Of a stretch of DNA of 64,000 bases, positions 6,001-32,181 are shown piece by piece. Position numbers and translations under genes: made by a program. The stretch spans positions 1 through 64,000 of IMG/VR virus record IMGVR_UViG_3300008262_000025; one strand, given 5' to 3'. This stretch comes from a virus. The notes beneath the pieces are model-generated. The model saw nothing but the letters and a program-made list of their open reading frames with translations, made no database searches and was not told the DNA's origin. Within the stretch, counting starts at the first letter, position 1; every line of letters starts with the position of its first letter.

Positions 6001-6376
6001 GTTAAATGAAAACTTTGGAATAGAAGAAGAATTTGAAGCTAAAGAAGATATAATTCCTGAAGAAGATTTAAGTTTAAACGAAATTAGAGAAAAACTTTTA
6101 AATTTAGAATCTGATAAATTTTTAGGTAGATCAGTTAGAGGTAAAATTAATGAACAAGAATATAAAGATTTAACTAGTAAACTTGCTAGTAATACTCAAG
6201 ATTCTGATTTACGTAATCAAGTTGTAGACTTATTACTTCAATATTATCAAGAAGGTAAGTATACAGAAATAATTGATAAATTATTAGATGATACTAAATT
6301 AGGTAAACTAACTAAAACTATAGAAGAGGATCCAGATTTAATACGTAAGAAATTAAAAGGTTGTCCTAAAGGTTAA
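3..6376 (+). CDS. Giant virion/ejection polyvalent protein, 5'-truncated by the window and split by a -1 frameshift at about 806-872 (joins ORFs 258..872 and 1142..6376)
   Basis: The frame of ORF 258 is open from position 3. The frame of ORF 1142 is open from 806 and reads NGQEQVKTKSIEEQKAEIERR...FYRAMM into the 1744-aa ORF. Zincin HETIH at 2126-2140 with downstream EEF; wHTH-like segment near 5880-6005; single Cys in the C-terminal GCPKG. Confidence 0.8.
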
Positions 6377-6381
6377 TAAAT

Positions 6382-6413
6382 AAAAAAGGGTAGATTTTTA
6401 GTCTACCCTTTTT
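6382..6413. terminator. Bidirectional intrinsic terminator between convergent giant genes
   Basis: Hairpin aaaaagggtagat...gtctacccttttt with A/T tracts on both sides, between stops at 6376 (+) and 6434 (-). Confidence 0.85.
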
Positions 6414-6433
6414 CTTTTTATAAAACCTAACTA

Positions 6434-9400
6434 TTAAAACGTTCTATTTAAATTCTTTGTCATTTCATCTAAGTTAGTTGCACTAGTAATATTACCAAAT
6501 AGTTTTAAACCTTTAGCATATAATTTGCTATCACCTTTTTTAAATATACCTTGCTCTTTTTCATATACTGCAAAAGGATCAGCAACTTGTGATAGAAAAC
6601 TATAAGCTCTATCTACAGTACCATTAAATGCAGTTGGACTTTTAAAAAGCTTCCAGTTATCACCAAAGAAACTAGGTACAGGAGCTAATGAACCAATTTC
6701 TTTTCTAAGTCTAGTAAGTTCATATAAAGCTAAAGCTCTAAATGCTGATACATCTTCATCATCTTCATCATCACCTATAGCTAATACAGCAACTAATAAT
6801 CCTAATAATAAATAAATACCTAATTCCATAGTTGCTCTTCTAACGTTAGCTTCTTCAAATGGTTGTAAACCTGTATCTTGTTTAGTACCACGGAAACTAT
6901 TCATAAACATTGTACTTAATTTTTTCCAATCAGTAAATAAGTAACTAAAAAATGTTATATAATAACCTTGTCTAATAACACCTACTTCTTCATTTCTATA
7001 AAGTTTACCCCATCTTCTTCTAGCCATAGGTACTAAGAACTTTCTATACATCATAAGTAATCTACCAAATACATTTCTTTGTATGTGAGTTTTATCAAAT
7101 GTAGCATAGTTACCTTGAAGATCTTTATTAATACCATGAAGTTTAGCTCTAATCTGCATATTCTTTTTACTTCTTAAAAAAGGAACACCATCTATATCTT
7201 TTATACCTTTTGCTATAACTTTACCATCAGCATCAAGTTCCATAGATGTTAATAAAGTATCTTTAATTTTATTAAATTCTACTTTTGCTTTTTTCTTTTC
7301 ATCATAAGTAAGTTCAGATCCTTTATCATTAGTTTTCTTTTGCATGTAATCTTCTATGCTATATACTTCACCATTAATAACTTTATAACTATTAAGTAAA
7401 GCATACATTGATGTAGCAGCAGCTTCAATTTCACCTATGTTATTATTAATAAACCAAGTACTTGATCTTAATGCTAAATTAAGTTTTGATGCAGTTAAAT
7501 CATTACCATATTCATCTTGGAATGTACCTTGTAAAGCATCATACATATCAAACAATTGACCTGATAAAGTTTCTCTTGATATCTTACCAAAATCTTTTAC
7601 CATATCCATAGTAAGTGATCCTATCTTATTACTACCATAATATACTAATTTTTTAGCATAACCCCAATCTTTAAGATTATAATGATCAGCGGCCCAACCT
7701 TCTAAGAATATTTGTGTATTAGCTTGTAAGTAGTTAGCAAAACCTTTAATCCAACCAGTAGATGTAATACCACCTATTTGAGCATACGATGCTGCAGTCA
7801 TAAGACCATCTAATAACTTATCTACTCTTACAGGCCCTACTACAGGAATGTTATAATTGATTTCATTATTCTGATCATCAAAGAATTGCATTTCAGTAAA
7901 TGATCTAAGTAATGCACCTTCATAAGTTTCACCTTCTTTGCGTACAAACTTTTCTATACCTAGTTTTTTAGCAACAGCATCGATCATTTTATTACCTTGT
8001 GCATCTCTTTCTATAGCACCACCTTCAGTTGATTTATCTCTTTTATTAATTAAATTTAAGATAGCTCTCATTTGAGGTAATATTTCACTCTTAGCTTTAA
8101 ATCTTTCTGCTTGTTGTATATAAGATAATATAGAGCTTACAACGTCTCTACTGACATTTTCTATATCAATGTGATATACATGTCTAAACGGAAGAGATCT
8201 ATTCTCTAATGATGTACTATAAGTTGCAGTACCTTCAATTAGTTGATCTTCATCTAAATCTATATCTTCACCAGATGTAGATAAATGTCTCATTATATTA
8301 TCATTTTCTATTTCTCTAGTAGCTTTATTTCCAAATTTAGTTTGCCACCAAGATCCAACTCTTTGTTTAAATTTACCTTCTATTAATTCTTCTCTACCAC
8401 TCTTATAAATATACGGTAATCTGTTACCTAATCTGTAAGCAGCAGGCATTTCTGCTTGTGCTTCTTTGTACTTTTTCATAATAACATTATAAAACTCTTT
8501 CCATTTAGGATCAAGTTGTTCATATTTAGAGTTTACCCATAAATGTTTTTTAGGTAACATATATCCTAATTGATCTGTGACTTTATCAAGATCAGTTCTA
8601 ATATATTCTTCTTTTATCTCTGGTGATTTATATAAATAATTAGGAAGTAATTTTACACCTTCAGTTAAAGTTTCATCAATTAATAAATATCCTGATTCTT
8701 TTTTTATTTCTTTATCTTCTTTGTGATTTTTTAAAAACCATTCTGTTTTTTCTAATTCAGCATTAAGAGCTTTATCGTTATAATTAGGATAGATTTGTTT
8801 AATCTTTTCTAATTCATTTTTTCTATCTATTTTGTAACGTTCAGAAATTTTATTAGTTTTATAAGTAGGTACTGTAGTCATCCATGCTCTAATAGGACTA
8901 TAAATAATTTCACCTTCTTTAGTATATTCAACATGATTATTTATATACCATTCAGATTCTTCAAAAAGTATACCATTACTTTCAGCCTTAGCTTGTTCTA
9001 ATTCATATCTTTTATAATATTCTGAATTAGGAACATATTCAACTATTTGATCAATAGCTTCATCAATACCATTTTTTATTTGAAAGAATAAATTCCAAGA
9101 TGGATCTTCTTGTCTTTGTTCACGTGTTACTTTATTAAGTAAGAATAGTTCATTTAATTCTTCTTCTAATTCTTTTAATCGAGCAATTACATCATTAGGT
9201 ATAACTTTAGTATCAACGTGAGTACCACCAAGTCTATATGGTTTTAATAAATCATTTATTTCTTCATTAATTTCATACTCATCATTTTTAGTATTATTTA
9301 ATTCATATTCTTCAAACCATGAATCTATTTTATTAGTAAATGTTTTAAAATTAATTACCTCATCACTTAATAACTTAATTTCATCCATTAAATCATAATC

Positions 9401-15400: not shown

Positions 15401-18379
15401 TAAAGACTCAGAAGTTAACTTACCAAACTTTTGAGGTTGATCTTCTACAAAGTTTTTAAATCCTTTTATATCTTGTTCGGAACCTAATATATGAATTTGT
15501 TCTGGTTCAAATACTACAATTTGATTTTCCCCTACATCATAAGTTCTATTATTAGATTGCTTACCTCCTTTTAATAATAAACCATCTGCGTTTTCTTTTA
15601 AACTTGTAGAATTTTCATAGTTATCAAACCAATCTTTTACTGTTAGATTTTTTGGATTTTTTATATTAATAACTGCATGTTGAACTACGCCTTTGTTATT
15701 TTCAATATTCTTTTTTATTTTTTCTGCTTCTCTTTCAATTTGTTCGTCAGAAGCACCCATATCTTTATAATAAGCTATTTCTTTTTTTATCTGCTCTATT
15801 GAAGGATTTAAACCGTGTTTTTTTATAACATTTCTTATATTACCATCATCAAATTCATCTTCTGTATATTTAACGGTATAGATATTAGCAGCATTTTTAT
15901 CATCTGTAAAAAATATACCTAACTCTTTACTTTTTTGATTAGTTTGAATACCTGTATTACCTCTATAAACAATACCTTTAACTTTACTATCAGGAAATAT
16001 AGTATCAAGATATTGAGAGTATTGTTGTTGAGCTTCTTGTTTATTACTATCAAATGATGATTTTTTAGTATCAAAATTTTCTAAATTATTTAAAGTGTCA
16101 TTGATAACATCTTCAAGTAAAGTATTCTTTGCTTCAATTCCTATAAGATTTCTTATTAAATTTAAAATGTCATCCCATAATGTTTTACCTTTAGATTTAT
16201 CAGATGGAATATCTTTTAAAATATCTCTAAATAAAGGTTCTGTAAAAACAGCAGCTAAAAATTCATCATTATCAGAAGTTTCATAACTCCAATCAAAAGA
16301 ATATATTTTATTATTAAATTCTTTAGATTTTTCTATTTTTTTAATAACTTTTTCTCTATAAGAATTAATTAAATTATAAAAATTTTTATCTCCAAATTCA
16401 CTTTTTGCTAATGTATTTCTTGTTAAAGCATGAATTGATTCATGTAATAAAGTTCTTGTTTTTTCATTAAAATTTTGATTAGGAGAAACAATTATTCTAT
16501 TAAAATATTCATTATACGTACCAATAACACCTGATTTTATTTCTTTATAATATACTTTAGTTGGATAATTTTTTAATTTATTTTTAATTAAATTAGCAAG
16601 TTCTTTATATTTATAATAAAATTCACTTGATTCATTTTTTTCTAATTCTTCATTAGACATTTGTAAAATTTTATCAAGCTCATCATTTAATAATGTATAT
16701 TTATCATCTTTTGTAATTTTAATATCTTCTTCAATATTTAAAATTTTATACACAGTATTAGCTAACTCAAGATTAGATTCAAATAGTTCTGGTACACCTT
16801 CTTTTATTTGAGTTAATTTACCTTTCTTAATATCTTCTTCATTAAAAGGTATAAATCTATTATAATCCCAAATATCTTTAAATCTACTATATCTTAATTT
16901 AGCTTCAAATGGAGCTTCAAATTTAGATAAACTAACATTATATTTATTACCATCACTACCAACAAAAGGATATTTTATAATACCTCTTTCAGATTCATCA
17001 TTACTAAAGAAGTCAACTAACATTGCTTCTTCACCTTCTTTATCTTCGTCTTCATTTATAGTTTTACCAGTATCAGATATATCAAATTTTAATTTATAAC
17101 TACCTTTTTTTTCATTAGTTTCATTATCAACAACAGTATAACCTATAATCTTACCTGTTTCTCTTCTTTCAATATTAGTAATTCTAAATCCTGCAGGTGG
17201 AATTAAATAAGTATCTACTTGATATTTATCAAAAAATGAATATGCTTTTATAGAATCAGGATAATAATATTTAACTAAATCATCTATTTCTGCTTGTGAA
17301 TAACCACCATTAACAAAATCTAAATCATGAACAACAGTTTCTATTTTTCTATATACTGTACCTTGTGTAGAGTATGCTATTGATCCTGTTAATGTAATGT
17401 TAGGTATAGTACCTATCTTAGTCATTATATCTTTAGCAATAGAATTTTCATCAAATGCTGTTTGAAAATCTACTTGTTTATATCCATCTTTTTTAGTTAA
17501 TCTAATAAAGTCATTACCTTTAAATGTATTTTCTACTATAGTATTTATTTGAGTTTTAATCTTACTATAGTCTGCACCTTTTAAAGAGTTAATAAGATTA
17601 TTAATAAACTCTTTAATTCTATCAAGTAAAGACTTTGATACATTTAATTCTTCAGCTAATTTCTCTGAAAAACCACTTTCTAATAATTCTTTAAATATTT
17701 CTTTTGTAGCAAGTCTATTTAAATTTCTTTTAGTAGAATCTCCATATTCTTCTTCTAGTTCTTTTACTCTTTTTTTAAATCTATCCGTTTTTCTTACTTC
17801 TCTTTCTATATCATAGAAGTAATCAGAATAACTTAACATTTCTGATAATGGTTCTGCCATTGCTTTAGATACTTGTTCTACACTTGATGTATCTAAACTT
17901 ATACTTTTAGCTGCAAGATTTATTATTAAATTTTCAGATTCGTTTACTTCAAATCCAAACGATTGTAAAAAGTTTAATAACTTAGCTTGAGGTTCATTTT
18001 CATCTAAAGTTAATTTACCAAACTTTTTATTATTATCAATTGACCTTTTAATTTTATCATCATTAATAAAACTATCTAATGCAGTTTTAAATGGTTTAAC
18101 ACTATTAGCATCTTGTAGATACATTAACTTAGGTTCAAAATTGTTATCTACAAAAGGAGATACTTTAGAATAAGATGCTCGTGCAGCATTATATTCAAAT
18201 GAATCTTTAGTATAAAGTTTTAATTCTTTAGATGCACTTTCCCAGTTTCCAAATTCATTTGAAAATTCAGGAGTTCTTACTTTATACCATATTTCTTTTG
18301 CTTTTCGTTCTCCATATAAAGATTTAAGTTCTTCATATAAATTACTTGTTTGCCCGTTAGGAGCATAAAAACATGCCAT
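6434..18379 (-). CDS. Giant (3981 aa) crAss-like ejection/polyvalent protein: NTase, zincin, ART-like, PD-(D/E)XK nuclease and C-terminal TM region
   Basis: N-terminal APNG..S.L...VRT..F..FGNWE leader; GS + HDLDFV NTase motif; HESIH zincin; VYRG/GIFFT/INIKNP/QIVVFEPEQI ART-like motifs; GTEVH..AGQID..DFKT..QL..Y nuclease; hydrophobic LGIYLLLGLLVAVLAIG followed by an acidic run near the C-terminus; adjacent to the vRNAP gene. Confidence 0.85.
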   Translation of the reverse strand: MACFYAPNGQTSNLYEELKSLYGERKAKEIWYKVRTPEFSNEFGNWESASKELKLYTKDSFEYNAARASYSKVSPFVDNNFEPKLMYLQDANSVKPFKTALDSFINDDKIKRSIDNNKKFGKLTLDENEPQAKLLNFLQSFGFEVNESENLIINLAAKSISLDTSSVEQVSKAMAEPLSEMLSYSDYFYDIEREVRKTDRFKKRVKELEEEYGDSTKRNLNRLATKEIFKELLESGFSEKLAEELNVSKSLLDRIKEFINNLINSLKGADYSKIKTQINTIVENTFKGNDFIRLTKKDGYKQVDFQTAFDENSIAKDIMTKIGTIPNITLTGSIAYSTQGTVYRKIETVVHDLDFVNGGYSQAEIDDLVKYYYPDSIKAYSFFDKYQVDTYLIPPAGFRITNIERRETGKIIGYTVVDNETNEKKGSYKLKFDISDTGKTINEDEDKEGEEAMLVDFFSNDESERGIIKYPFVGSDGNKYNVSLSKFEAPFEAKLRYSRFKDIWDYNRFIPFNEEDIKKGKLTQIKEGVPELFESNLELANTVYKILNIEEDIKITKDDKYTLLNDELDKILQMSNEELEKNESSEFYYKYKELANLIKNKLKNYPTKVYYKEIKSGVIGTYNEYFNRIIVSPNQNFNEKTRTLLHESIHALTRNTLAKSEFGDKNFYNLINSYREKVIKKIEKSKEFNNKIYSFDWSYETSDNDEFLAAVFTEPLFRDILKDIPSDKSKGKTLWDDILNLIRNLIGIEAKNTLLEDVINDTLNNLENFDTKKSSFDSNKQEAQQQYSQYLDTIFPDSKVKGIVYRGNTGIQTNQKSKELGIFFTDDKNAANIYTVKYTEDEFDDGNIRNVIKKHGLNPSIEQIKKEIAYYKDMGASDEQIEREAEKIKKNIENNKGVVQHAVINIKNPKNLTVKDWFDNYENSTSLKENADGLLLKGGKQSNNRTYDVGENQIVVFEPEQIHILGSEQDIKGFKNFVEDQPQKFGKLTSESLNTPEVAYSLKATDILLSDKANEVFKKGEKNNWTLDKILTELQIPKEQKKLILDLEFNNYVDELSLQENIAMELVNRYTYTVEVNTSSTASPIKSGNVTFKLNDYMYIHNISFNKGFYKISFEDWQNNTGKLIPINSQEFTNARNIFEENNEQQITKDYSNLTAPGGIDYKINTFRTPSINNVISQDGEYHDNEFNRSRGDMIGWFRNDDKDSNKQVRRILELQSFFQKVKDKEIIVTNNKINSNGKFVIDLNDYKETVKIDDPLFDESLALEYITYVKDRPFEHNHGVLYEDDTNYYQQPDWDDDFLVIIPKDTLYNYKKDSQNNFLQLLNKNNNWVTFFLKSILQDSAKKGYKKVLFPTGETIIVIEQFKEIFYKMNEFNKVEKFLIDLKVTDFIKDVSGQAQYIGNDQEGYVDYQRVLESFYPNDAIENDETFDKARQQDLYRLKKDKSHYDNTEKQIQGTINFYENTVTNILKKQGYNPVVITDEHGNTWNEVEITPERDLSTIKFGKLTPNEFDNGISGLVDQSLYYLNDFENISIEELNTHIDKEINNDKITLKEAEENIKIIKDTYNDGYDKIQILEQAYDYISNVERTIENLEDSKVLLTNLQNYDEDPEVINNLFDLLKTGILEFANNGIVNNLNLVKAILAEDVKKGKLTQTESVEDLTKRVNESNLPEVTKTDLKELLKTEDNFSIQKVRDFIDDEEDELPRESLVFKDEVSGNTEPFFIATNKVKKVDKVNPVEISKAKAAGYDVVMSDTETHVLNPDVVKIPLINKPIKLNNSPIEFALNVMNDISSKSKVQFKKDYNLNKEWSLNNGILSYNPSMITGDTKVVPLITLASGLLRNNNMLGTMMENYGNKDIIDNYKFIKSKTKLDSIDYENIAFEHLNQIQNVKNKNLLLFLDPIVSQALANADKRSLDILSTATDFNNENVIKFGKVTKEAGEMEKKVLNRASKVKFDSSPDGKTIHAELTQRKHDYIKENGLNFDHSITGIVRQHNLLDFDDENLIKYIIQSNKRSKDWFDSLTELAKKDFITAVLNNRFNFYREENETDNFTFQDAFGNLVQEEPFDKELFYKLTKVLYNSEVRREVGTEVHSLIEKILKKDPIDVNNDIKKLEKDINNLETKIGKDNLLPRFNDRPKVKKQDAIVLSEDQKKLDRLYASLDFYNKIVSMKNQIEERGGRILTEVLVHTDKMLDINDGSRQVSVAGQIDMLVIYEDDESVDPEYRGKVEIYDFKTMHYEPKPAAPYYEIVRDFTFGLNSKKQAGYSLQLMLYQRILEEELGFEVKDLFLIPITVPEVGLNSYENDKGEIVNEVYIDGHFEISEVNDYKINEQPSGKITIEASLDENGKIKKTYSINIKTFYNTPFGNQGALVYNKAKRIAFERMRSKYNPKFGDEKVKKEKEDFANVDLLLDNKQQRINKLIDDIKIYLEKRLTDINRSIDKDPKKQDKQKTEINKLKTDISDLDKIRSLNTFIHASYLELYGTENMLGLNDKFELVINSYNQGDIGSSEAIRDIEDIRRIAENYNILDEIMNALLEGTSDKDLNEIKKMDSFKELETAIEIKKKLLDVRYQYEMERLLGNNLEMYLNENLNKSVDDFIKGKQIQYEQKIKDLEKKIKENPSNDKFKTQLKYYKDRYKKNMERFKDTLVRDAGTLVRDFKQLNRDIGFIERFLTAPISTSSGILSSYAMMLKFHLTEAEWNMKDIALEIQQAAKKLSSAVFDQSAFNFLPNQGDNPQKFYDPILETVKEWVRDPVTGKLILAETVNLVSEYGRKKFTYVNDDGKTVEDEMTYTNIIKHYQYRMRKLKEAGKFDEFRKVDKEYKAWVNKNMERPNIDDYYKMDDLFTKDEIGIEAKKRRDEIISMMDNIKDRVKHRSIELSDDDLAALRELDIEYKLLGSIYDKDGIKKEGDDLKIAIRIQEFNTEYNKRHRFVVNYERFEDERRRAKLKFETEPDKYLLWLEENTEVKIDDSLFDKVKYLRKLKKVLKYAKNNDDYDLMDEIKLLSDEVINFKTFTNKIDSWFEEYELNNTKNDEYEINEEINDLLKPYRLGGTHVDTKVIPNDVIARLKELEEELNELFLLNKVTREQRQEDPSWNLFFQIKNGIDEAIDQIVEYVPNSEYYKRYELEQAKAESNGILFEESEWYINNHVEYTKEGEIIYSPIRAWMTTVPTYKTNKISERYKIDRKNELEKIKQIYPNYNDKALNAELEKTEWFLKNHKEDKEIKKESGYLLIDETLTEGVKLLPNYLYKSPEIKEEYIRTDLDKVTDQLGYMLPKKHLWVNSKYEQLDPKWKEFYNVIMKKYKEAQAEMPAAYRLGNRLPYIYKSGREELIEGKFKQRVGSWWQTKFGNKATREIENDNIMRHLSTSGEDIDLDEDQLIEGTATYSTSLENRSLPFRHVYHIDIENVSRDVVSSILSYIQQAERFKAKSEILPQMRAILNLINKRDKSTEGGAIERDAQGNKMIDAVAKKLGIEKFVRKEGETYEGALLRSFTEMQFFDDQNNEINYNIPVVGPVRVDKLLDGLMTAASYAQIGGITSTGWIKGFANYLQANTQIFLEGWAADHYNLKDWGYAKKLVYYGSNKIGSLTMDMVKDFGKISRETLSGQLFDMYDALQGTFQDEYGNDLTASKLNLALRSSTWFINNNIGEIEAAATSMYALLNSYKVINGEVYSIEDYMQKKTNDKGSELTYDEKKKAKVEFNKIKDTLLTSMELDADGKVIAKGIKDIDGVPFLRSKKNMQIRAKLHGINKDLQGNYATFDKTHIQRNVFGRLLMMYRKFLVPMARRRWGKLYRNEEVGVIRQGYYITFFSYLFTDWKKLSTMFMNSFRGTKQDTGLQPFEEANVRRATMELGIYLLLGLLVAVLAIGDDEDDEDVSAFRALALYELTRLRKEIGSLAPVPSFFGDNWKLFKSPTAFNGTVDRAYSFLSQVADPFAVYEKEQGIFKKGDSKLYAKGLKLFGNITSATNLDEMTKNLNRTF

Positions 18380-18419
18380 ATTTTTTCTTTTAATAGTTAG
18401 ATAAATTTTTTGATAGGCG

Positions 18420-18448
18420 AAAAAGGGAACTCCGAAGAATTCCCTTTT
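18420..18448 (-). terminator. Intrinsic terminator after the RNAP gene
   Basis: The minus strand reads gggaattc-TTCG-gagttccc-ttttt (UUCG tetraloop hairpin plus U tract). Confidence 0.85.
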
Positions 18449-18459
18449 ACCTTTTTATA

Positions 18460-21400
18460 TTATTTGCAATCTTTATTCACTTGACCATCTGTTTCTAAGT
18501 CTTTTTCAAAGTTACTTAAGGAATATTCAGTGTAATTTACTACATTAGTTGCAGTTAAATTGTTAAATCTTTCATATAGTTCTTTTAAAATAACACCTTC
18601 ACCAGATATATTATACTCATTGTTAGCTCTAACTAAATTATTCATAAGTAATGTTCCATTTGCATTAAGTATTTCAATAGCTTTATTAATAATCTTCTTC
18701 TTAACATCCTCTGACATTGTATTGTTAGCTGGTACAGCAACAAATATTTGTGATGAAGAATCAGCAATTATATTATCATTAGTAGCTATACCTTGATTAG
18801 AAGCACTTCTTAGATAATCATTAACTTTAGATTTTATAGATTTAACATCAGTATACCCAATAAATCCATTAGCATTTAAAGCTTTATTTTTATTATATCC
18901 AAACTCATCATTTATAACAAATCCAAATTTATTATCTGTAATTGTTTGATTTGTATCTCTTGCATATTGATCTATATTAGGAATGTATTCAAAATCGACA
19001 TCATATTTATCTTTTATTGAATCCATATTTAACATCATATAACTAATATCCCATCCTTGTTTTTTACTCCAATTTCTAGCATATTCAGATTTTTGCAGAT
19101 CTTTTATTTTTAAATTATTTGGATCGTATTTTAAACCTAGTTTAGCATAATCTTCAGATAGTAATTCATTAACACTCTTATCAGAAATATTAGTAATTTT
19201 AACATAAATAGGAGCTCTACCTTTACTTGTTATTTTTACAATTTCACCAACTGACATATCAGATATATCTGCAAATTTTCTTGATGTTTGAGTTCTTAAA
19301 AATGAAATAATAGCATCGTAAGTAGTTTTAATATTCTGACTTACTAAATCATCTCTCATAGGACTCATACTTAAACCATTTCTATCTGGTTCTATATGTT
19401 TCATATTATGAGGTAAGGTTTTTGTAATTCTTGTTTTCTTAACTATATTTTGTAAATCAGATTCAGTTTTATCACTTAAAACAGTACGAGATCTAATATA
19501 CATATCTGATTCTGCTTTAATCTTATCAGCATTTTGTAAAATATATGTATAAAGTTTTTTTCCATCTTCACTCTTAGTTAATAATGAAGGTAGAACATCA
19601 ATTGTACCTTTTGATAATATATCATCTGGTTTTACAAGATAACCTAATTTTCTTAAATCATTTGTAATTTTAGTTACAGTAAAATAAACAGATAAATTTT
19701 GAGATAGGCCTACAGATTGTAGTTCATTAGTTAATGCAGATTTAATATAACTGGTATAATCAGAGTTATCATTTTTTGATTTAATTATCATAACTTTATT
19801 ATATACATTAGGTATATTATTAACTATAAAGAAATTCTTAAGATCTTGAATTTGTTCATCCATATTACCTTTAGTATCTATAACAAATAAACCTTTTTGT
19901 GCATTAGTAACTTTATCAGCAACTTCTTCTACATTATTATTAACAACTATATTAATAGAAGCTTGTGTTTCAGAACTTCCATTATCAAATACTACAACAA
20001 TATTAGGAGATTTTTCCATATATAGTTTTGCAACTTTTGGTATAAAACCTTCAGTATTTACTTCATCTACTATTTGTAAACCATGTAATTTTAAATTAGA
20101 TAAATTATCACTAAATACAGTAATTACTTCTTTAACACCATAATTAGGTCTGTTTCTATTTTCTAATACTTTTGAAACTTCTTTTTCATAGTAAGGTTGT
20201 ATCTGATATATCTGAGTAGATTTACCTTTAAATGGTAAGTATTCGTCAGATGTTCTATCATAACCTAACCAATTATTCATATCATTATTATATTCAGAAA
20301 TAAAAGGTGATAATTCACTTTTAATATTTTTCTTATCTAAACCTAATTGTGAAACTATATCATATGGAGTTGTTACACCTTTACTTGTAACTTTATATAC
20401 AACATTATTAATTGTAATTAAAGCTGTCTCACCTATCTTTAGATCAAGTTTAGATAACACATCTTTATTAGTTACTGGTTTAATAAGAACATTTTCATTT
20501 TTTAAATGATTCTTATCTGAGTCAGATAACAAATTAACTGATAATGTACTATCATTAATTAACTTATATCTTTCGTTTCCAAACATACGTTTAGATAATA
20601 ACTTTTCTTCAGACTTACTAAATGAATTAGTAGTATCTCCATCCTTCTTAAAATCTTCAACAACTTTTAAAAGAGAACCCCCAGGAAGCTGAGGATTCTC
20701 TGTCATTTCTAAATTATAAGCAAATGAATCTTTAGATTCAGCAAATACTTCTCCAATTTCTGTTAAACTGTCAAGTTGTATATCTGCTTTTACTCCATCT
20801 TTATTTAGTAATTGAGACAAAGGTGCAATTACTTTTTTCTGCATTTCAACAAGACGTAACATTAAATGTTTATATTCTTGTGGTGTATATAAATAATTAT
20901 AAATAGAAGTATGAATATTATCTACTTTTACATAGACAGCTTTTCTACCTTTATATTTATATTTATTTTTTTCTTCTAATTCATCTAAAGTAACTTTATC
21001 TTTAACATCAGAAGGCATACCATCAAAAGATACTAATACAAATGTTTCATATTCAATCTTTCTTTTTTCATATGCTATCTGTTCTTCTTCAGTCATATTA
21101 TCAAAATCAGGTCTAGGTGGTTGTTTTTCCATTACAAAGAATAAAGGAAACTCTAACCCTATAACAAGTCCATTTTTATCATATACACCATTAAATGGAG
21201 TATTTTTAACTATTGGATTTATTACACTTGTAAGTTCTGATTTAACTTTTTTTGCAACTTCAGTGTTACTGATATTTTTTTCTTTACTTAATATATTATT
21301 AAATTCATTTTTATTAGAATACCCAATGAGTTTTCTAATACTTTTTTGCTCTTGTGAATCAAGAAATTTTTCAAATATTTCGTAAAGATTTTTATTATCT

Positions 21401-24400: not shown

Positions 24401-27400
24401 GTATTAGATAATGAATTAAGTATATCAATATATTTACTGAAGTCATCATTATTAGGTTGTTGTTCTTCTAAGTAATCAGTATACTCTTTAGAACTTGATA
24501 ATTCCCATTCTTGTTTTGATAGTTTACTTAACTCATCATGTTCTTCTTTACTAAATCTTTTAAATATATTATTTGCATCACTAATAAATCTTGTACTTTC
24601 ATTATCAGGTAATGAATTTAATTCGAAATCAATGTTAACATTTAATAAATTAACAGTTTCTAAATCTGATTTAAAACCTATATATTCATTTCTAAGTTTT
24701 TCATCTTCTTGTTTTAGAAGTTTAATTTCTTTACCTATTTCATCAGCTTCATTCCTAATAGTTTCTAATTCAGTTCTAAGCTCTTTTACAAGCTTATCAT
24801 TTTCATAAAATACATTTACACCTTTATATTGTTCTCCAATAAGTATAGCTTTAGCTTCTTCTAAATCAAATCTAACATTTGAATTGTCTTTAGCTATATG
24901 CTTAATATACTCTTCAAATAAATGCATATTAAGTATTTCATCATCGGATATTTCAGGAAGATTATTAGGATTATACATAGATCTTAATTCTTTAATAGTA
25001 TATTCTCCATATACATGGAAATTAGTGTTACCTTTATCATCAGTAGTAGTATAAAAATCTTTAAGTAATGTATACTTAGAGTCAATGTCAAAGTCCTCAC
25101 CGGAGAATAACACTGTCTCTAAAGGTAATACTGCAACGTCACCTAATGCAAGAGGAAGAAAATCGACTACTTTAAAAGAAATCATTGAACGTTTATCCTC
25201 AGTAGGAATACGAGTAGCAAACATTTGAAGTATAGAATCTATAGCTTTTTTGTTTGTTTTATGTCTTCTGTAATCCTCTTCAGTAAGCTTATCACTAATA
25301 GCTTTAAACTCTTCTAAAGTTTTATAATCAATTATGTCATTAGACTTTAGATTAAATATTTCTTTAGACCATGCTGGCATCATTACTTCAGAAACACTTG
25401 CTTGTTTAACAGTAGATAATAAAGATCTAAGTTTAGCATAATTAACTGTTACATTAGGATCAGTTTCTTCTAATTCTGTATAAGGACTAAATATATTTGT
25501 TAATATATATTCAACATCAGATTTAAATTCATCAGATAACTTTTCAGTATTTGTACCTTCTCCACCTTCTCTATTTCCAGCAATGTTAATAGTTCCATGT
25601 GGTACTTTAGAAAGTAACTCTCTTAACTCTTCATCAGTATTAAAATCTTTTCCATATAAGAAGAAAGGTTTTCCATGTTTTTCTGCAAATTTTCTAGTAG
25701 ATATTAAACCTGCTGAATCTTTAGCACCTTCTGAAAAATAAATAGTAACATCAGAATTAATTACATTTTGTTCTGTACGAGCATTATAATAACTAGATCC
25801 TTTTTTAGATTTAGGATTTTCAGCATCATATCTATTTTGCAATTCATCTGATATTGCTACTACACCAAGTTCTTCAGCTAATTTTTTATTAGCGCCTTTA
25901 CCTTTTTCATTACCAAAATCAGATGTAGTTGTACCACCTATTTCTAAACCTCCTATTTCTTTAGCTAAAAGAAGACCAAGAGTATCAATACCAGTTTGTA
26001 AACCAGATATTACTTTATTAACACGAACTTTATACTTTTCTTTAATAGGTTTTTTTGTTCTAGAATCTATTAATAAAGATGTTTTAAGTCTAATGTATTC
26101 TCTAAGTAATTCATTATTACGTGATAAAAAAACTAACATGTTATTATCAAATACTTCATCAGTAACTTTTTTATCATTAAGTTCATTTATAATTAAGTTA
26201 AATAAGTCAGAAGATACATCATCTTGAGTTATTAATTTATCACCTATTCTAAATCCTTGTAATTGATCTGATTCACTCCATCTAAGTCTTCTAGTCTTAT
26301 ATTCTTTTTTAAGACTCCATTTACCTGTATCTTTATTTTTCTCATAATACTTTTCAGGATTCTCATCAATAGATAATCTTGTAATTACATTATCATTTTG
26401 ATCAACAATAACTTCATTACCATAATCAGATATTAATGATACTTTTCTACCTGGTACTACTTGTTGTAATACATTCTTAGAGAAATGTGCTAAAAATTGC
26501 TGTTCAAACTTTTCAGCAATAGCAGGAATATTAAAGTTATATTTACTTGATTTTCCATCAACACTAAATTCTCTAAAGAAGTCAAGTAAGACTTCATCTG
26601 ATCCACTATTTAATAGTACTTGTTTAATCTTCTTTTGAAAATTAACCATATCTCTTTGAAACTTACCATCTCCATCAAAGTAACCTAATACAGAAATAGC
26701 ATGTTCAACAGAGTTTCTTACTCTATCTGTTAAAGCTTGACGATACTTTTTAACTACATCACTAATCTCATAAACTTCTCCTCTAATAGCAGCCAGTCTA
26801 CTTTTATCTTGTTCATTATCAATGATCTGTAAAAGTTGTGACATAAATGTAATCTTAGTTTTACCAGAAGGAGTTTCTACTTGTAGTCTCCAAAATTCAT
26901 TTTTACGTTTAGATGTATTATAAGAAAAATCATGATAGCCATTAACATCAGTAGCAACAACAGGAGTAATAAGTTTAGATGCAGATTTAGGTAGTACTTC
27001 ATCAATACTATTTAATTGCATATTTACTCTCATGTTATGTAATACTTTGTGATTATCTCTAGGTTCCCATAATGTTTCATATTCATCCCATAATCTTTTT
27101 ACTTTATCTTTAACATCAGAATTATTTTTTCTAAATCCAACAGAAGCTTCTAATTCTTTAATCTTAGATTTAAGTTCATTAGCTTTAGCTTGATTTTCTT
27201 TTGGTAACCATGATGTTAGTTCTCTTATTAATATAGCATAAGAAAGTTTATGATATATTTCTCCATCAAAATAAACACCCTTAACAGAATTAAATGTAGC
27301 ATTTAAACTATCAAGTTTTTTTAATTCGTCCCAAGTTAGTTTTTCACCAAACCTAATCTTATCAATTATAGGTTTAATGGAATCTCCTAGTTTACCATTT

Positions 27401-30400: not shown

Positions 30401-32181
30401 ACATCAGATTGATCCTTACGTATTTCATGATAAACTAAAGCAGCAATATCACTAATTATTTTGTCAGTCTCTTGCTCTTTTGCGTAAACAATGGAAAGTG
30501 CTCCATTTTTATCTAAACCTTGATTATCCAATATGATTAATTGGAATGCTGGAATTTGTCTCATTTGTCTAACGAATCTATTAGGTGTGATAGTTTTATT
30601 TTTAAACCTTTGATTGTTGATGTCATGAAATAAAGCGTCAACTTTACCTCTAACACCGATTAACTTAAGAAACGCGTTCATAAGTCTATTAAACAAATTA
30701 ACAATTGATAAGTTACTAGTAGATGGTTTATTAGTTTTAGTAAAAGCTTGATATCTATCAGCTAAATACTCTTCATAAACTAACTGTTCTAGTTCTTGTT
30801 TTGATAAAGATTCATAATTACTTACTGAATCTCTTAACTTATCAATCTTATCATTAAGCTGTTTTTCAGAAAGATTCATTTCTTTCCTAGCTTCATTAAT
30901 ATATAGATCTATTTCATTATCATTTAAGAACATTCTAAATACAGCATGAAATGCTTCATGATATTCTGTACCTTGTTCTGCAGCTTTTTCATTTAGGTAA
31001 ATTAGATTATTAAAAAATAAACCAAATGGAACACCAGATACTTTCATGTTATCCATAACAGTTTCAATATCAGTAGATACTTCAACAGCATCTCCTAATA
31101 TAGCTCTAATGTTTTCTTTTGCTTTATCTATTTTAATTCTAGATTCTTCAGGTGCAGCTTGTGGTTGTAAACTAAATGGTAACGCTTCATAATATGGATC
31201 AATTAATTTAATAAGAACATCTATTTCTCCATAAAAATCATTAATATCAAATTTAGTAATAAATTCTTCTAATGCTTCAGAATAAATATTACTATTTAAT
31301 AATTGTAACATACCTAAGTATACATTAGTTTTATTACTACTTAATAATAAATCAGTTACAGGTTTAATTAAATCATTATCAATTAAACCGTTAAGAATAG
31401 GATAAATTTTTTCTTTAAATCCATCTTTAGAAACAGAAAAATCACTTGATCTAATATATTGAAGTAAAGGAAGTAGTTTAGATCTTATTAAATTTTTATC
31501 TAAGTCATTAATAACAAGATTATATTCTTTATTTATTATAAAAGTAGTTGTTTTACCTTCTGTATTACGATAATTTCTTCTATTATAATTAATATTTTCA
31601 GGTAATTTATATAAATTATCAAGATTTTTTATTACTAATTCTTTAAAGTTATTATATAAAGGTAAATTATCATTAATAAAAGATCGTAAATTTTTATCTT
31701 TTGTTACAGATGCAAGTTTATAAAAGAATTCATTAACAAAATAATCATCAATAAATGTATCTGGCGGACCATATAAGTTTAAATAAAGTTGACTTAAATC
31801 TTGTACATCTATTATATCATAACCTAAATTAATAAAATTATATTTTAGATTATCTAAACTTTGTTGATAATCATCAGTAATATTAATCCATAATTTATTT
31901 AAAATTAATAATGATTCTTTATTATTAAGTTCTAAAAATTTATTAATTGTTTCTTCTAACATTGGAAAATCATCTGAATTAACTAAATTTTGTACCATAC
32001 TCTCTGAATTATTAAAGTTTAAGTATAATTTAGCTGCTTCTTCTTTTAATATAATAGGATCATTAATTGTATCTGAAAAATGTTCTACATATTTATCAAA
32101 GACTTTTGATGGCCTACCGAATGGATCTAATACTTCTACTATTTCGTTAGTATTAGGATCTCTTTTTATTTGACATATCAT
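18460..32181 (-). CDS. Virion-packaged single-chain DNA-dependent RNA polymerase (crAss-like, phi14:2 gp66 type) with accessory domains
   Basis: 4573 aa; catalytic GEDFDID at 25081-25095, preceded by RIPT..K.SM; N-terminal zincin HEAFH (30946-30960); SLOG/MoCo-carrier-like insert; ASCH-like C-terminal domain. Confidence 0.9.
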   Translation of the reverse strand: MICQIKRDPNTNEIVEVLDPFGRPSKVFDKYVEHFSDTINDPIILKEEAAKLYLNFNNSESMVQNLVNSDDFPMLEETINKFLELNNKESLLILNKLWINITDDYQQSLDNLKYNFINLGYDIIDVQDLSQLYLNLYGPPDTFIDDYFVNEFFYKLASVTKDKNLRSFINDNLPLYNNFKELVIKNLDNLYKLPENINYNRRNYRNTEGKTTTFIINKEYNLVINDLDKNLIRSKLLPLLQYIRSSDFSVSKDGFKEKIYPILNGLIDNDLIKPVTDLLLSSNKTNVYLGMLQLLNSNIYSEALEEFITKFDINDFYGEIDVLIKLIDPYYEALPFSLQPQAAPEESRIKIDKAKENIRAILGDAVEVSTDIETVMDNMKVSGVPFGLFFNNLIYLNEKAAEQGTEYHEAFHAVFRMFLNDNEIDLYINEARKEMNLSEKQLNDKIDKLRDSVSNYESLSKQELEQLVYEEYLADRYQAFTKTNKPSTSNLSIVNLFNRLMNAFLKLIGVRGKVDALFHDINNQRFKNKTITPNRFVRQMRQIPAFQLIILDNQGLDKNGALSIVYAKEQETDKIISDIAALVYHEIRKDQSDVKPDIVTVFNKVMEERFNFYNPDSEENSEIINIIAEKKGDAAADKKYNELIKIQEIFNVNNEENKHNIDVILDGLKDKYKLFNFNPFDDDYFDENKADNREMLDITNVEIGGFDMIPNQLREFMSLVTYEVEDEYTGRKIFKSVDGSVVYNGLIKSLASKDFTDVMDEFEKFVEYGNDMSRAVYQALKEITKHNSDEYDNEHQLVNLFRITFDKEKLSYLQTLIDSDTRQSIVINALNEDVDQVQIKDWYANWDNNKLSDILNDPKQRALYDRYFKALEDLIFEDSLILIKNANGNSVEYKKIFKDVITKFNEGFKVQKKDTELNIPSFEKLTGMTLSEGLIIFSILDNFYNENVDLFKVLIPKKDQNFYTSFKELLVKSQDENKIAEGLTKNSLDQIKKIMFKSDEQVTDLKNYYEFKVQKLREQGRDSSKFQINPNEYRNIYIPFPDREYLDENNKTETKVEDVLGFIKKIANANALFDETVTESSFQDANQNQRYSHVLKSYQSVATRRLRDKAKRDKLAAKYPGTVKNNYLLSGTQAMTESIFKDFKFENTGDLRQTPLKPRDEKGKIIEGFSRSTTKEGKGVTSKTIDFKSLNLLQLTLFKERKVKKIKNEAGLVTEVESSYFIPKIFETKSTDEAIQLPVNNVRNNDKFFDLENGGMTDSAVDTIFDLLLSEISLIDRVENELNEGIESLLDFMSRQNNSEERLNLQLELAKLENKEYNTENLSTEEAFDVINQQGEDIKRKQEIKNILSEGYTGPILYEDFHIQTDGKGNLKRNKDGSLKGVGRGFDLWNFKELMKYSNNLKSYVKARKELANMMLLEKTKDLTPDELNKKSKLEATIKRNSPTQIEKEIKDAIREMFTKDLNNYHNRLSSYKIISKSTDGKIDNLLVPFDENKYKNVEDFIGDFYFNDFINSLSYNLLIDKDPRIRKNETDAVKRNAGSLAFGPNAGQGEFTVAYRDEQEQEYDIVTGKKEKINRDDGQAHMSTDRFIFILKRNGKLGDSIKPIIDKIRFGEKLTWDELKKLDSLNATFNSVKGVYFDGEIYHKLSYAILIRELTSWLPKENQAKANELKSKIKELEASVGFRKNNSDVKDKVKRLWDEYETLWEPRDNHKVLHNMRVNMQLNSIDEVLPKSASKLITPVVATDVNGYHDFSYNTSKRKNEFWRLQVETPSGKTKITFMSQLLQIIDNEQDKSRLAAIRGEVYEISDVVKKYRQALTDRVRNSVEHAISVLGYFDGDGKFQRDMVNFQKKIKQVLLNSGSDEVLLDFFREFSVDGKSSKYNFNIPAIAEKFEQQFLAHFSKNVLQQVVPGRKVSLISDYGNEVIVDQNDNVITRLSIDENPEKYYEKNKDTGKWSLKKEYKTRRLRWSESDQLQGFRIGDKLITQDDVSSDLFNLIINELNDKKVTDEVFDNNMLVFLSRNNELLREYIRLKTSLLIDSRTKKPIKEKYKVRVNKVISGLQTGIDTLGLLLAKEIGGLEIGGTTTSDFGNEKGKGANKKLAEELGVVAISDELQNRYDAENPKSKKGSSYYNARTEQNVINSDVTIYFSEGAKDSAGLISTRKFAEKHGKPFFLYGKDFNTDEELRELLSKVPHGTINIAGNREGGEGTNTEKLSDEFKSDVEYILTNIFSPYTELEETDPNVTVNYAKLRSLLSTVKQASVSEVMMPAWSKEIFNLKSNDIIDYKTLEEFKAISDKLTEEDYRRHKTNKKAIDSILQMFATRIPTEDKRSMISFKVVDFLPLALGDVAVLPLETVLFSGEDFDIDSKYTLLKDFYTTTDDKGNTNFHVYGEYTIKELRSMYNPNNLPEISDDEILNMHLFEEYIKHIAKDNSNVRFDLEEAKAILIGEQYKGVNVFYENDKLVKELRTELETIRNEADEIGKEIKLLKQEDEKLRNEYIGFKSDLETVNLLNVNIDFELNSLPDNESTRFISDANNIFKRFSKEEHDELSKLSKQEWELSSSKEYTDYLEEQQPNNDDFSKYIDILNSLSNTDKINDTTRQGLESYVDMLNLTEKGEKIAEQALYQLSQIKDKAAKLKEKYPVVKELEKVTSEINLILSEKIKNAINNKGVNVKLTNSKEHYKLKTKIYREAKNTIREFRNSVIEGRGYDSAVNISRNKNQKWNQLQSVRDARNELIEEVKPKNQRIAELFKLLSEQKKLVSTYNLQALLIAMRMNKLPSSLEEFLNHPHYKRLNNSAINNEIVDMVSLLYLNSGMDKVRYESTDLEPFHGDGKENSTNIGLSKTMLLLTGRNIDDFLYNSAEGKMQAKEANKLGAQLIGPVAITNIVKAVLARSKTNMTKSAIIFDGKTYDNLSSYESEDIGFNIVLTDEGEYQINLEVDAEGKPKIFKDKRIMAEISLLLAAMTDNAKHGDAFKLNLSLNTLGTYTYLMSLGIGTNRSMLLANQPALYEFNKLNSSKTSAVMSSDDIRNAENLNEIKTIQKKYEEIRAALENEILNAIKNDKSLDTVNYNNSKMSFTDFVKLQTQSLKNEDLDDISLNSLELFNSIKTFKDSGIDYLNETTTGFIDKAKSIKNLNELKELYSAIVTQSHVIKAFDKLQKQSKTFSSINALLRLNQGLPSSFYELQNLWDMIDTFQIDTEALLKGSSYYTKLSKSSNAIYDIQDVLEENQDMKQMLIHFLKINEISKEFVISQTDFFDGVFNKIVENLRLGIKDRANSLKQIKKDLSSFLTLNAYRNSFVRRGERVPFGPELLYTNLVDPNLPNEMLSKTLSQQLEDLLNDSDPNVSDAIKNNIFIKTIRSEVNKIASDDINLFSNNPYGISINLDLITADTRKKIDPDLRKRIVNGFRELMSSTDGKIRQFADNLFYYTIVKDGMQFKNSSFIKYLPAEIYQDYSDILEKVNTALRNNVWESTDEIEGLQDLVGMSKKEIENSFISLFARDIENRSLLKSVTDAQLSNISTNIKIELDSEIDIFTSSEEEIYAGFDHDNISVDVSHLFDYSKARIALYESEDNEMPLLTTIYKSGLLDQIDNKNLYEIFEKFLDSQEQKSIRKLIGYSNKNEFNNILSKEKNISNTEVAKKVKSELTSVINPIVKNTPFNGVYDKNGLVIGLEFPLFFVMEKQPPRPDFDNMTEEEQIAYEKRKIEYETFVLVSFDGMPSDVKDKVTLDELEEKNKYKYKGRKAVYVKVDNIHTSIYNYLYTPQEYKHLMLRLVEMQKKVIAPLSQLLNKDGVKADIQLDSLTEIGEVFAESKDSFAYNLEMTENPQLPGGSLLKVVEDFKKDGDTTNSFSKSEEKLLSKRMFGNERYKLINDSTLSVNLLSDSDKNHLKNENVLIKPVTNKDVLSKLDLKIGETALITINNVVYKVTSKGVTTPYDIVSQLGLDKKNIKSELSPFISEYNNDMNNWLGYDRTSDEYLPFKGKSTQIYQIQPYYEKEVSKVLENRNRPNYGVKEVITVFSDNLSNLKLHGLQIVDEVNTEGFIPKVAKLYMEKSPNIVVVFDNGSSETQASINIVVNNNVEEVADKVTNAQKGLFVIDTKGNMDEQIQDLKNFFIVNNIPNVYNKVMIIKSKNDNSDYTSYIKSALTNELQSVGLSQNLSVYFTVTKITNDLRKLGYLVKPDDILSKGTIDVLPSLLTKSEDGKKLYTYILQNADKIKAESDMYIRSRTVLSDKTESDLQNIVKKTRITKTLPHNMKHIEPDRNGLSMSPMRDDLVSQNIKTTYDAIISFLRTQTSRKFADISDMSVGEIVKITSKGRAPIYVKITNISDKSVNELLSEDYAKLGLKYDPNNLKIKDLQKSEYARNWSKKQGWDISYMMLNMDSIKDKYDVDFEYIPNIDQYARDTNQTITDNKFGFVINDEFGYNKNKALNANGFIGYTDVKSIKSKVNDYLRSASNQGIATNDNIIADSSSQIFVAVPANNTMSEDVKKKIINKAIEILNANGTLLMNNLVRANNEYNISGEGVILKELYERFNNLTATNVVNYTEYSLSNFEKDLETDGQVNKDCK

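Follow-up and report, generated by a model that had tools for sequence, protein, structure and literature searches.

Terminal cysteines mark the junctions between giant cargo proteins in a crAss-like phage and its relatives and suggest a head-to-tail link

In the phage crAss001, the proteins gp45, gp46, gp47, gp49, and gp50 have been identified as virion cargo by mass spectrometry (PMC10172136; this and the other papers named below are cited from the accessible part of their texts). In phi14:2, the corresponding proteins gp67, gp66, and gp65, of which gp66 is the virion RNA polymerase (RNAP; PDB 6VR4), carry notes of tandem mass spectrometry on virions in the sequence record (g065-g067). How megadaltons of protein pass in an ordered way through the narrow tail of a podovirus is an unsolved problem, and the authors of the crAss001 work proposed that the order of ejection is probably set by packing and mutual interactions (PMC10172136). 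Cysteine is suppressed in other ejected proteins, namely gp50 of N4 and gp71-gp73 of DEV, with transit through the oxidizing periplasm given as the rationale (PMC11445570), and in the cyanopodophage A4 cryo-electron microscopy has revealed that Cys1715 of gp27 is disulfide-bonded to Cys5 of gp26, the C-terminal helix of gp27 being docked into gp26 (PNAS 2025, PMC12002296). Here we analyze bases 1-64,000 (hereafter, the window) of the single-contig virus record IMGVR_UViG_3300008262_000025 (89,557 bases, 25% G+C). The window encodes three giant proteins, giant-1, an RNAP, and giant-3, which probably form the same module trio as phi14:2 gp67-gp66-gp65 and crAss001 gp47-gp50-gp49 and show the same cysteine pattern: cysteine is almost entirely absent except at the termini which, judging from gene fusions in relatives, would face the next protein of the trio.

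The three giants contain only 4 cysteines in 10,298 residues (0.04%). That of giant-1 is residue 1741, in the C-terminal sequence KGCPKG; the RNAP has Cys3 (MIC) and Cys4572 (DCK) and no others; and giant-3 has Cys3 (MAC) alone, its C-terminal end being devoid of cysteine (Table 1). The frame that precedes giant-1 adds 289 residues of the same protein and no cysteine, bringing the total to 10,587 residues. By comparison, the other 34 open reading frames (ORFs) of at least 150 amino acids (aa) in the window contain 110 cysteines in 9,142 residues (1.20%), a rate at which ~127 cysteines would be expected in the giants (Poisson P ~5e-49). All four are at most four residues from a terminus, that is, at one of 18 favorable positions (P ~9e-12). 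The initial annotation of this DNA, made by eye, had placed four cysteines close to the termini and none at the C-terminal end of giant-3, and our recount returned the same codons. Its remark that the neighboring proteins contain cysteine freely agrees with the rate given above, and its statement that the N-terminal part of giant-1 lies off the window agrees with the length of the orthologs P0028-P0030 (2,881-3,029 aa). The scarcity of cysteine that it described is thus real, but its figure of about 10,700 residues was too high. The terminal cysteines are also conserved. Residues G1740, C1741, P1742, and K1743 of giant-1 are invariant in all four aligned sequences, and all six RNAP orthologs start with MICQ[IV]KRD and have a cysteine at positions -1 to -3 (negative positions are counted from the C-terminus), with internal cysteine in P0022 only.

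Table 1. Coordinates of the three giant proteins and of their features in the window
Feature	Position	Strand	Observation
Upstream part of giant-1 (gp47-like)	3..872	+	Frame 3, open at window start, 289 aa, no cysteine
Giant-1, C-terminal 1744 aa of a putative gp47-type cargo protein of ~3,000 aa	1142..6376	+	One cysteine
~170-aa domain common to gp47-type proteins of relatives	1142..1666	+	50-89% identity to P0031-P0044
HExxH, zincin-like motif in giant-1	2126..2140	+	V328, H329, E330, I332, H333, and T334 invariant in giant-1 and three orthologs
Sole cysteine of giant-1, fourth residue from the C-terminus	6362..6364	+	17/17 homologs with cysteine at most 5 residues from the C-terminal end
Giant-3, putative gp49-type cargo protein, 3981 aa	6434..18379	-	Cysteine at 3 only
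gp49-like C-terminal module of giant-3, residues 3272-3954	6518..8566	-	phmmer match to crAss001 gp49 residues 693-1315, E 1.5e-22
Mobile ~380-aa domain of giant-3, residues 125-515	16835..18007	-	Predicted Pol-beta-type nucleotidyltransferase
Giant-3 N-terminal Cys3 (MAC)	18371..18373	-	32/34 gp49-type proteins with cysteine in the first 10 residues
Putative two-barrel virion-type RNAP (gp50/gp66-like), 4573 aa	18460..32181	-	Cysteine at 3 and 4572 only
RNAP C-terminal Cys4572 (DCK)	18466..18468	-	C4572 invariant in 6/6 orthologs
DFDID catalytic motif of the RNAP, residues 2363-2367	25081..25095	-	Invariant in 6/6 orthologs; as in phi14:2 gp66
cpYpsA SLOG domain in the RNAP protein, residues ~2057-2208	25558..26013	-	PF12694, E 9.5e-14, 51.8 bits (cut-off 26.2)
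RNAP N-terminal Cys3 (MIC)	32173..32175	-	M1, I2, C3, and Q4 invariant in 6/6 orthologs

Sequence comparison indicates that the three giants correspond to the crAss cargo trio, with giant-1 similar to gp47, giant-3 to gp49, and the polymerase to the two-barrel RNAP gp50. Scans of the whole giants against Pfam and PHROGs gave no matches, whereas domain-sized queries did. The window RNAP and giant-1 had no phmmer match to crAss001 and p-crAssphage proteins at E≤1, and their links to the crAss proteins were obtained instead by tblastn and jackhmmer. In tblastn, residues 1700-3200 of the RNAP matched RNAP genes from 58 Crassvirales records, with at most 40% identity and over ~10% of the query, and the jackhmmer gp50 module spans residues 1442-3064. 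For giant-1 the assignment to the gp47 type is indirect: its gp47-like N-terminal module would fall off the contig, and the link runs through the shared 170-aa domain, since proteins that contain it (P0033, P0036-P0042, and three from IMG/VR) have N-terminal parts that match crAss001 gp47. The window enzyme matches the two-barrel RNAPs of crAss phages, is one of three separate giants, and is not a single-polypeptide T7-like virion RNAP. Schitoviridae, represented by the virion RNAP gp50 of N4, resemble it in having giant ejected proteins, virion RNAP included, in which cysteine is near-absent. They differ in that their RNAP is one T7-like polypeptide of ~3,400 aa and no terminal cysteine is reported in the texts consulted, whereas the two-barrel enzyme of crassviruses is spread over 2-4 polypeptides, each of which keeps its junction cysteine. 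With 4573 and 3981 aa, the window RNAP and giant-3 are about twice as long as their phi14:2 and crAss001 counterparts, and the window giants carry domains that those lack, namely cpYpsA SLOG, nucleotidyltransferase-like, and HExxH.

The pairing of the terminal cysteines can be read from phages in which these proteins are fused, a situation already mentioned in the phi14:2 preprint, according to which the three proteins form a single one in some phages. We collected giants by homology, never by cysteine content (the set includes 150 representatives with the 380-aa domain of giant-3), and labeled their gp47, gp50, and gp49 modules by jackhmmer within this set. Among 167 distinct homologous giants there are 273 cysteines in 480,111 residues (0.057%), and 155 of them lie at most 10 residues from a terminus, where ~2 would be expected. 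On the N-terminal side they occupy position 3 (35 cases), 4 (17), 5 (13), or 6-9 (7), and on the C-terminal side -1 (16), -2 (26), -3 (20), -4 (10), -5 (5), -6 (3), -8 (2), or -9 (1). The suggestion of the initial annotation that internal cysteine is selected against and terminal cysteine retained thus holds over the entire set. The module assignments cover 157 proteins of at least 1000 aa, after exclusion of ~60 shorter entries, mostly fragments, and of the partial giant-1 of the window. Proteins with the gp47 module only have a cysteine at the C-terminal end in 27 of 29 cases and never at the N-terminal end; those with the gp49 module only have it at the N-terminal end (32 of 34) and never at the C-terminal one; and those with the gp50 module only have it frequently at both (16 of 23 at the N-terminal end and 20 of 23 at the C-terminal end). 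In fused proteins the order of the modules is gp47-gp50-gp49. The four gp50-gp49 fusions have no C-terminal cysteine and three of them have an N-terminal one, the fourth being crAss002 gp33, with MSC at residues 33-35; the two gp47-gp50 fusions both have a C-terminal cysteine and no N-terminal one; and the three gp47-gp50-gp49 fusions have a single N-terminal cysteine among them and no C-terminal one, the triple fusions P0056 (5,570 aa) and P0060 (6,012 aa) being free of any terminal cysteine. In the remaining 62 proteins, where no module was found, 13 have an N-terminal and 28 a C-terminal cysteine.

A pair of cysteines is therefore found where the gp47-gp50-gp49 chain breaks into separate polypeptides, and none where the chain is continuous. 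Since cysteines are kept or lost along with fusion, the logic of Rosetta-stone proteins pairs the C-terminal end of giant-1 with the N-terminal end of the RNAP, and the C-terminal end of the RNAP with the N-terminal end of giant-3, a pairing that is well supported by the comparative data. It coincides with the order proposed in the initial annotation, which matches both the order of the modules in the fused proteins and the loss of exactly the junction cysteines. A different arrangement, in which the RNAP would be closed on itself and giant-1 joined to giant-3, fails to predict which cysteines survive fusion. Giant-1 and the RNAP are encoded on opposite strands, both here and in crAss001, so that neither gene adjacency nor translational coupling can explain that pair. 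Moreover, the C-terminal tails of 17 gp47-type homologs cannot be aligned with one another and yet all 17 have the cysteine at the end (16 of them have no other), which implies that this residue belongs to the terminus and not to a domain. We also considered split inteins or ligation, but there are no terminal domains of intein size and the cysteines, set back 0-8 residues from the ends, do not sit at a splice junction. A signal at the nucleotide level (start region or terminator) was likewise discarded, as the giant-1 cysteine codon is at a convergent gene end and the cysteines are spread over positions -1 to -9 and 3 to 9.

These class-specific counts bear on two readings in which the cysteines would not be paired. 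According to the first, they would be functionless leftovers, tolerated because selection is weaker in disordered chain ends. Nothing speaks for this beyond the general depletion of cysteine, which is known for N4-like ejected proteins, and in these no terminal cysteine is reported (PMC11445570). A cysteine content of 1.2% predicts, however, that about one in nine termini has a cysteine within 10 residues, as opposed to the 27/29 and 32/34 observed at one end and the 0/29 and 0/34 at the other, and it does not account for the invariance of C3 and C4572 in the six RNAP orthologs and of C1741 in the four of giant-1, so that we find this reading hardly credible. According to the second, each terminal cysteine would bind a partner of its own, such as the portal, the inner capsid, the DNA end, or, after ejection, a lipid or membrane. 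The crAss001 cargo protein gp45 contacts the portal (PMC10172136), and the C-terminal cysteines of p-crAssphage gp47 (-2) and crAss002 gp30 (-8) have no obvious partner. But independent anchors would not vanish in matched pairs upon fusion, as they did in P0056 and P0060, and would leave unexplained why gp47-type and gp49-type proteins follow opposite rules, all of which makes them very improbable.

The same succession, a cysteine at the C-terminal end of the first protein, at both ends of the second, and at the N-terminal end of the third, recurs in 11 reference Crassvirales genomes and in four relatives from IMG/VR. In phi14:2, gp67 (1797 aa) has its cysteine at -1, gp66 (2180 aa) at 3 and -2, and gp65 (1421 aa) at 3, with no others; in crAss001, gp47 has it at -3, gp50 at 5 and -9 plus one internal, and gp49 at 5. 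The terminal pattern is identical in cr128_1 and cr85_1 and is also present in IAS virus, together with more internal cysteines and a split or frameshifted gp055/gp056. Cysteine depletion does not extend to the non-cargo virion proteins of crAss001 (0.73% cysteine in the muzzle and 5.1% in the tail hub A). Five Intestiviridae have a protein upstream of the RNAP that ends in cysteine (-1 or -2), and their fused RNAPs (4,070-4,417 aa) start with MSC and lack cysteine at the C-terminal end. In the Suoliviridae phage cr56_1, gp39 (4,461 aa) with cysteine at -4 is followed by gp38 with cysteine at 6. The four IMG/VR loci, which are all those found with a single 175-aa query, comprise three with separate proteins, namely 3029 aa (-4), 3514 aa (3, -3), and 2103 aa (4) in G001; 3239 aa (-1), 4181 aa (4, -3), and 1892 aa (4) in G003, which is complete with terminal repeats; and 3078 aa (-1), 2969 aa (8, -6, and one internal), and 2237 aa (4) in G004. 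The fourth (G002) encodes a gp47-gp50 fusion of 5,129 aa with its sole cysteine at -4, followed by a gp49-type protein of 1522 aa with cysteine at 3. Finally, ten proteins of 1,033-1,424 aa that contain the 380-aa domain (P0091, P0092, P0100, P0102, P0122, P0126, P0131, P0132, P0142, and P0185) have cysteine at both ends and nowhere else. Judging from this pattern they may be extra middle links, in which case chains of at least four proteins may exist in some phages.

We consider it probable that the paired cysteines form head-to-tail disulfides in the particle, making the cargo one ejectable thread that opens in the reducing cytoplasm. The cargo proteins would leave the capsid partly unfolded, through portal and tail, with nearly all their cysteines purged and a single one kept, a few residues from the end, at each terminus adjoining the next protein. 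In the oxidized virion, disulfides between the giant-1 C-terminal and the RNAP N-terminal ends, and between the RNAP C-terminal and the giant-3 N-terminal ends, would turn the three polypeptides into a linear thread of more than 11,000 residues, a covalent counterpart of the fused polyprotein of some relatives. Because the cysteines are 0-8 residues from the chain end, the joint would add little to the width of a single chain, so that it could fit through a narrow channel. During ejection, the RNAP subunits would stay together and in order as parts of the thread, and the reducing cytoplasm would then open the links and release the subunits. We infer the disulfide chemistry in crassviruses from the analogy with A4 and from the disulfides present in crAss001 virions; the role in ejection or packaging and the reduction in the host are presumptive as well. 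As a tentative generalization, crassviruses might inject a multi-subunit RNAP as one covalent thread of two to four giants, with at most ~11,000 residues in all, that travel through the tail in single file in the order gp47-type, RNAP, gp49-type, with the thiol-reducing system of the host as the release factor and with fusion and cysteine pairs as interchangeable solutions.

By analogy, A4 provides the one experimental precedent for a terminal cysteine-cysteine link of this type. In the record of A4 (Anabaena phage A-4L), gp27 (1717 aa) has its sole cysteine at -3 and gp26 (1114 aa) at 5, so that, as in the window trio, one protein has its only cysteine near the C-terminal end and the next one near the N-terminal end; both are large internal virion proteins, otherwise cysteine-free, encoded by adjacent genes. 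A-4L gp26, gp27, and gp28 had no phmmer match at E≤1 among ~230 giant proteins, and the likeness with the crAss trio seems to be one of design and not of family. A4 differs in being a T7-like phage of another family without a virion RNAP, and in having a single link that stabilizes a static ring, with no chain, fusion and fission rule, or reductive release described in the accessible text. A metal ion (Zn, Cu, or Fe) shared by the terminal thiols, which the initial annotation had offered next to disulfides, has become less likely. The four thiols of a trio could in principle form one tetrahedral site, but each terminus has a single cysteine with no histidine or cysteine beside it, the cysteines appear and vanish in pairs, the genomes with one fusion, whose chains are of two proteins, have only two terminal cysteines, too few for a stable site, and the A4 pair was modeled as a disulfide (PMC12002296), so that a metal bridge is very unlikely.

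Paired cysteines could also act before ejection as a transient or stable tether, for example by bringing the proteins into the procapsid in equal numbers or by holding them in an inactive complex, without any role in ejection order. The evidence for pairing applies equally to this possibility, the A4 disulfide stabilizes a static pre-ejectosome ring (PMC12002296), and a crystal form of gp66 was described as self-inhibited and pre-packaging (phi14:2 preprint). Disulfides are, however, not expected in the reducing cytoplasm, where procapsids fill, and a packaging tether has no need for cysteines at most nine residues from the ends, which a threading constraint does predict; we therefore regard it as unlikely.

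Several observations weigh against the ejectable disulfide-linked thread that we favor, or at least limit it. The module labels derive from jackhmmer searches within a small set of our own making (Z 1000) and not from curated models, and the class rules have exceptions. Two of the 29 gp47-type proteins lack the C-terminal cysteine (P0083 and P0149, the latter a fragment). Two of the 34 gp49-type proteins have no cysteine within their first 10 residues: P0007, with MAHC at residues 13-16 and probably a wrong start, and P0048, which is cut at the N-terminal end. Seven of the 23 RNAP-type proteins have no N-terminal cysteine. Three of these (P0018, P0080, and P0119) are weak partial matches with no cysteine at all; three others (P0002, P0016, and P0086) are extended at the N-terminal end by more than 1,800 aa, in which we searched for a gp47 module and did not find it; and the seventh is IAS gp056, from the split gp055/gp056. 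P0005, labeled as a triple fusion, keeps Cys4, its gp47 match covering only 152 aa. Among the unclassified giants, 34 of 62 (34 of 73 by another count) have no terminal cysteine; they may be full fusions or members of other phage groups. To these add the two C-terminal cysteines without obvious partner mentioned above. The 100 bases absent from the present assembly between positions 820 and 821 (see below) may hold a cysteine or a stop, and the repeated motif K-x-G-K-L-T, if cleaved, might remove the cysteine-bearing tail of giant-1. In addition, thiols would have to become oxidized despite the reducing cytoplasm and the anaerobic gut. The RNAP-associated cargo is among the unresolved parts of the crAss001 reconstruction (PMC10172136), and the literature that we found reports no disulfide between cargo proteins of any crassvirus. 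Recombinant phi14:2 gp66 is active alone (phi14:2 preprint), and the link is therefore not needed for catalysis.

If the thread exists, a redox-reversible covalent tether between successive proteins would be a simple physical answer to the problem of ejection order. It would also explain why cysteine was purged everywhere except at the chain ends and why split and fused polymerase modules replace each other freely throughout the phage order that is most abundant in the human gut. phi14:2 and crAss001 are both cultured, so the pattern is directly testable in them. For annotation, the position of the terminal cysteine tells whether a giant ORF is the first, middle, or last link, and it flags wrong start codons. 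In crAss002 gp33 (L007), cr110_1 gp40 (L027), and P0007, an in-frame M-x-C or M-x-x-C occurs 32, 14, and 12 codons, respectively, inside the annotated start and agrees with the N-termini of orthologs; the annotated starts of these three sequences are probably wrong. The initial annotation was not aware of any description of the pattern, and we found none for crassvirus cargo, but it missed that the A4 disulfide and the suppression of cysteine in N4-like phages are in print. The searched text of the crAss001 paper speaks of disulfides in the tail and in gp57 alone and does not mention cargo cysteines (PMC10172136). The words cysteine and disulfide do not occur in the text of the phi14:2 preprint, nor disulfide in a 2023 review of Crassvirales, nor Cys or cysteine in a 2026 paper on N4. 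A full-text literature search, which most subscription journals lie outside of, returned nothing on the cysteines of crassvirus cargo proteins. What we did not find in print is thus a serial chain built around a virion RNAP, the distribution of such chains among Crassvirales, and their trade-off with gene fusion.

On the minus strand, the RNAP gene is immediately followed by that of giant-3, and giant-1 is convergent to them on the plus strand, a layout shared with crAss001 gp47 and gp50-gp49. The minus strand also carries replication genes for a primase, a DnaB-like helicase, a Dda-like helicase, and a DNA polymerase. We did not detect capsid genes on the contig, which indicates that the record is incomplete. 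A protein identical to giant-3 is also encoded on a contig of 127,207 bases. Most of the public runs in which positions 500-1400 occur are metagenomes of lake water or fresh water, and in four of the runs the pieces align to this stretch with identities of nearly always at least 99%. Within the window, giant-1 is interrupted by a change from frame 3 to frame 2 between its two parts (Table 1). Residues 973-1008 of the ortholog P0028 match positions 3-110 of the window (tblastn), and P0028 can be aligned with the window from its residue 973 onward. Contigs from three runs (X1, X2, and X3) have 100 additional letters between positions 820 and 821, those of X1 and X2 diverging from the window before position 551. 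As 100 leaves a remainder of 1 when divided by 3, the extra letters join the two frames, and the break is probably a flaw or a variant of the present assembly, from which 100 bases would be missing.

Several other features of the giants and their relatives deserve mention. Thioredoxin-like proteins are encoded in the early/replication module of some crassviruses (cr128_1 gp059, L006; p-crAssphage gp37 and gp39, L003), where they may serve ribonucleotide reduction only, although they are also candidate helpers in the opening of the proposed links. The motif K-x-G-K-L-T occurs in seven copies in the ~6,000 residues of giant-1 and giant-3 (residue 185 of the upstream frame of giant-1, residue 1719 of giant-1, and residues 119, 518, 984, 1501, and 1647 of giant-3) and not once in the RNAP, against a chance expectation below 0.1 estimated roughly from residue frequencies. 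Two copies exactly flank the 380-aa domain of giant-3 and one precedes the terminal cysteine of giant-1 by 17-22 residues; the motif may mark a site of processing or link modules. The 380-aa domain itself was found in 195 representative proteins (E≤0.001), with 55-69% identity between giants that can otherwise barely be aligned, and at N-terminal, internal, or C-terminal locations in the cargo proteins. It contains a G-S...D-x-D motif with invariant S209, D228, and D230. Searched as a profile against solved structures, alignment A3 reached E ~0.4 at best, and Foldseek returned weak rows only (E≥1.5e-3). The best matches of its AlphaFold2 model (AF2; predicted local distance difference test score, pLDDT, 82) were Pol-beta-type nucleotidyltransferases, namely ANT(2'') (Z 8.6), the MenT1 toxin (8.3), and TglT (8.0), and on the basis of this model the domain is probably an injected nucleotidyltransferase. 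The whole giant-1 ORF had no Pfam match, the stretch around HExxH not having been scanned alone; the motif fits the annotation "RNAP associated protein fused to zincin protease" given to the protein upstream of the Intestiviridae RNAP. In the RNAP protein, the SLOG domain sits just upstream of the catalytic DFDID, and the same stretch also matches gp055 of IAS virus, a separate gene annotated as "molybdenum carrier".

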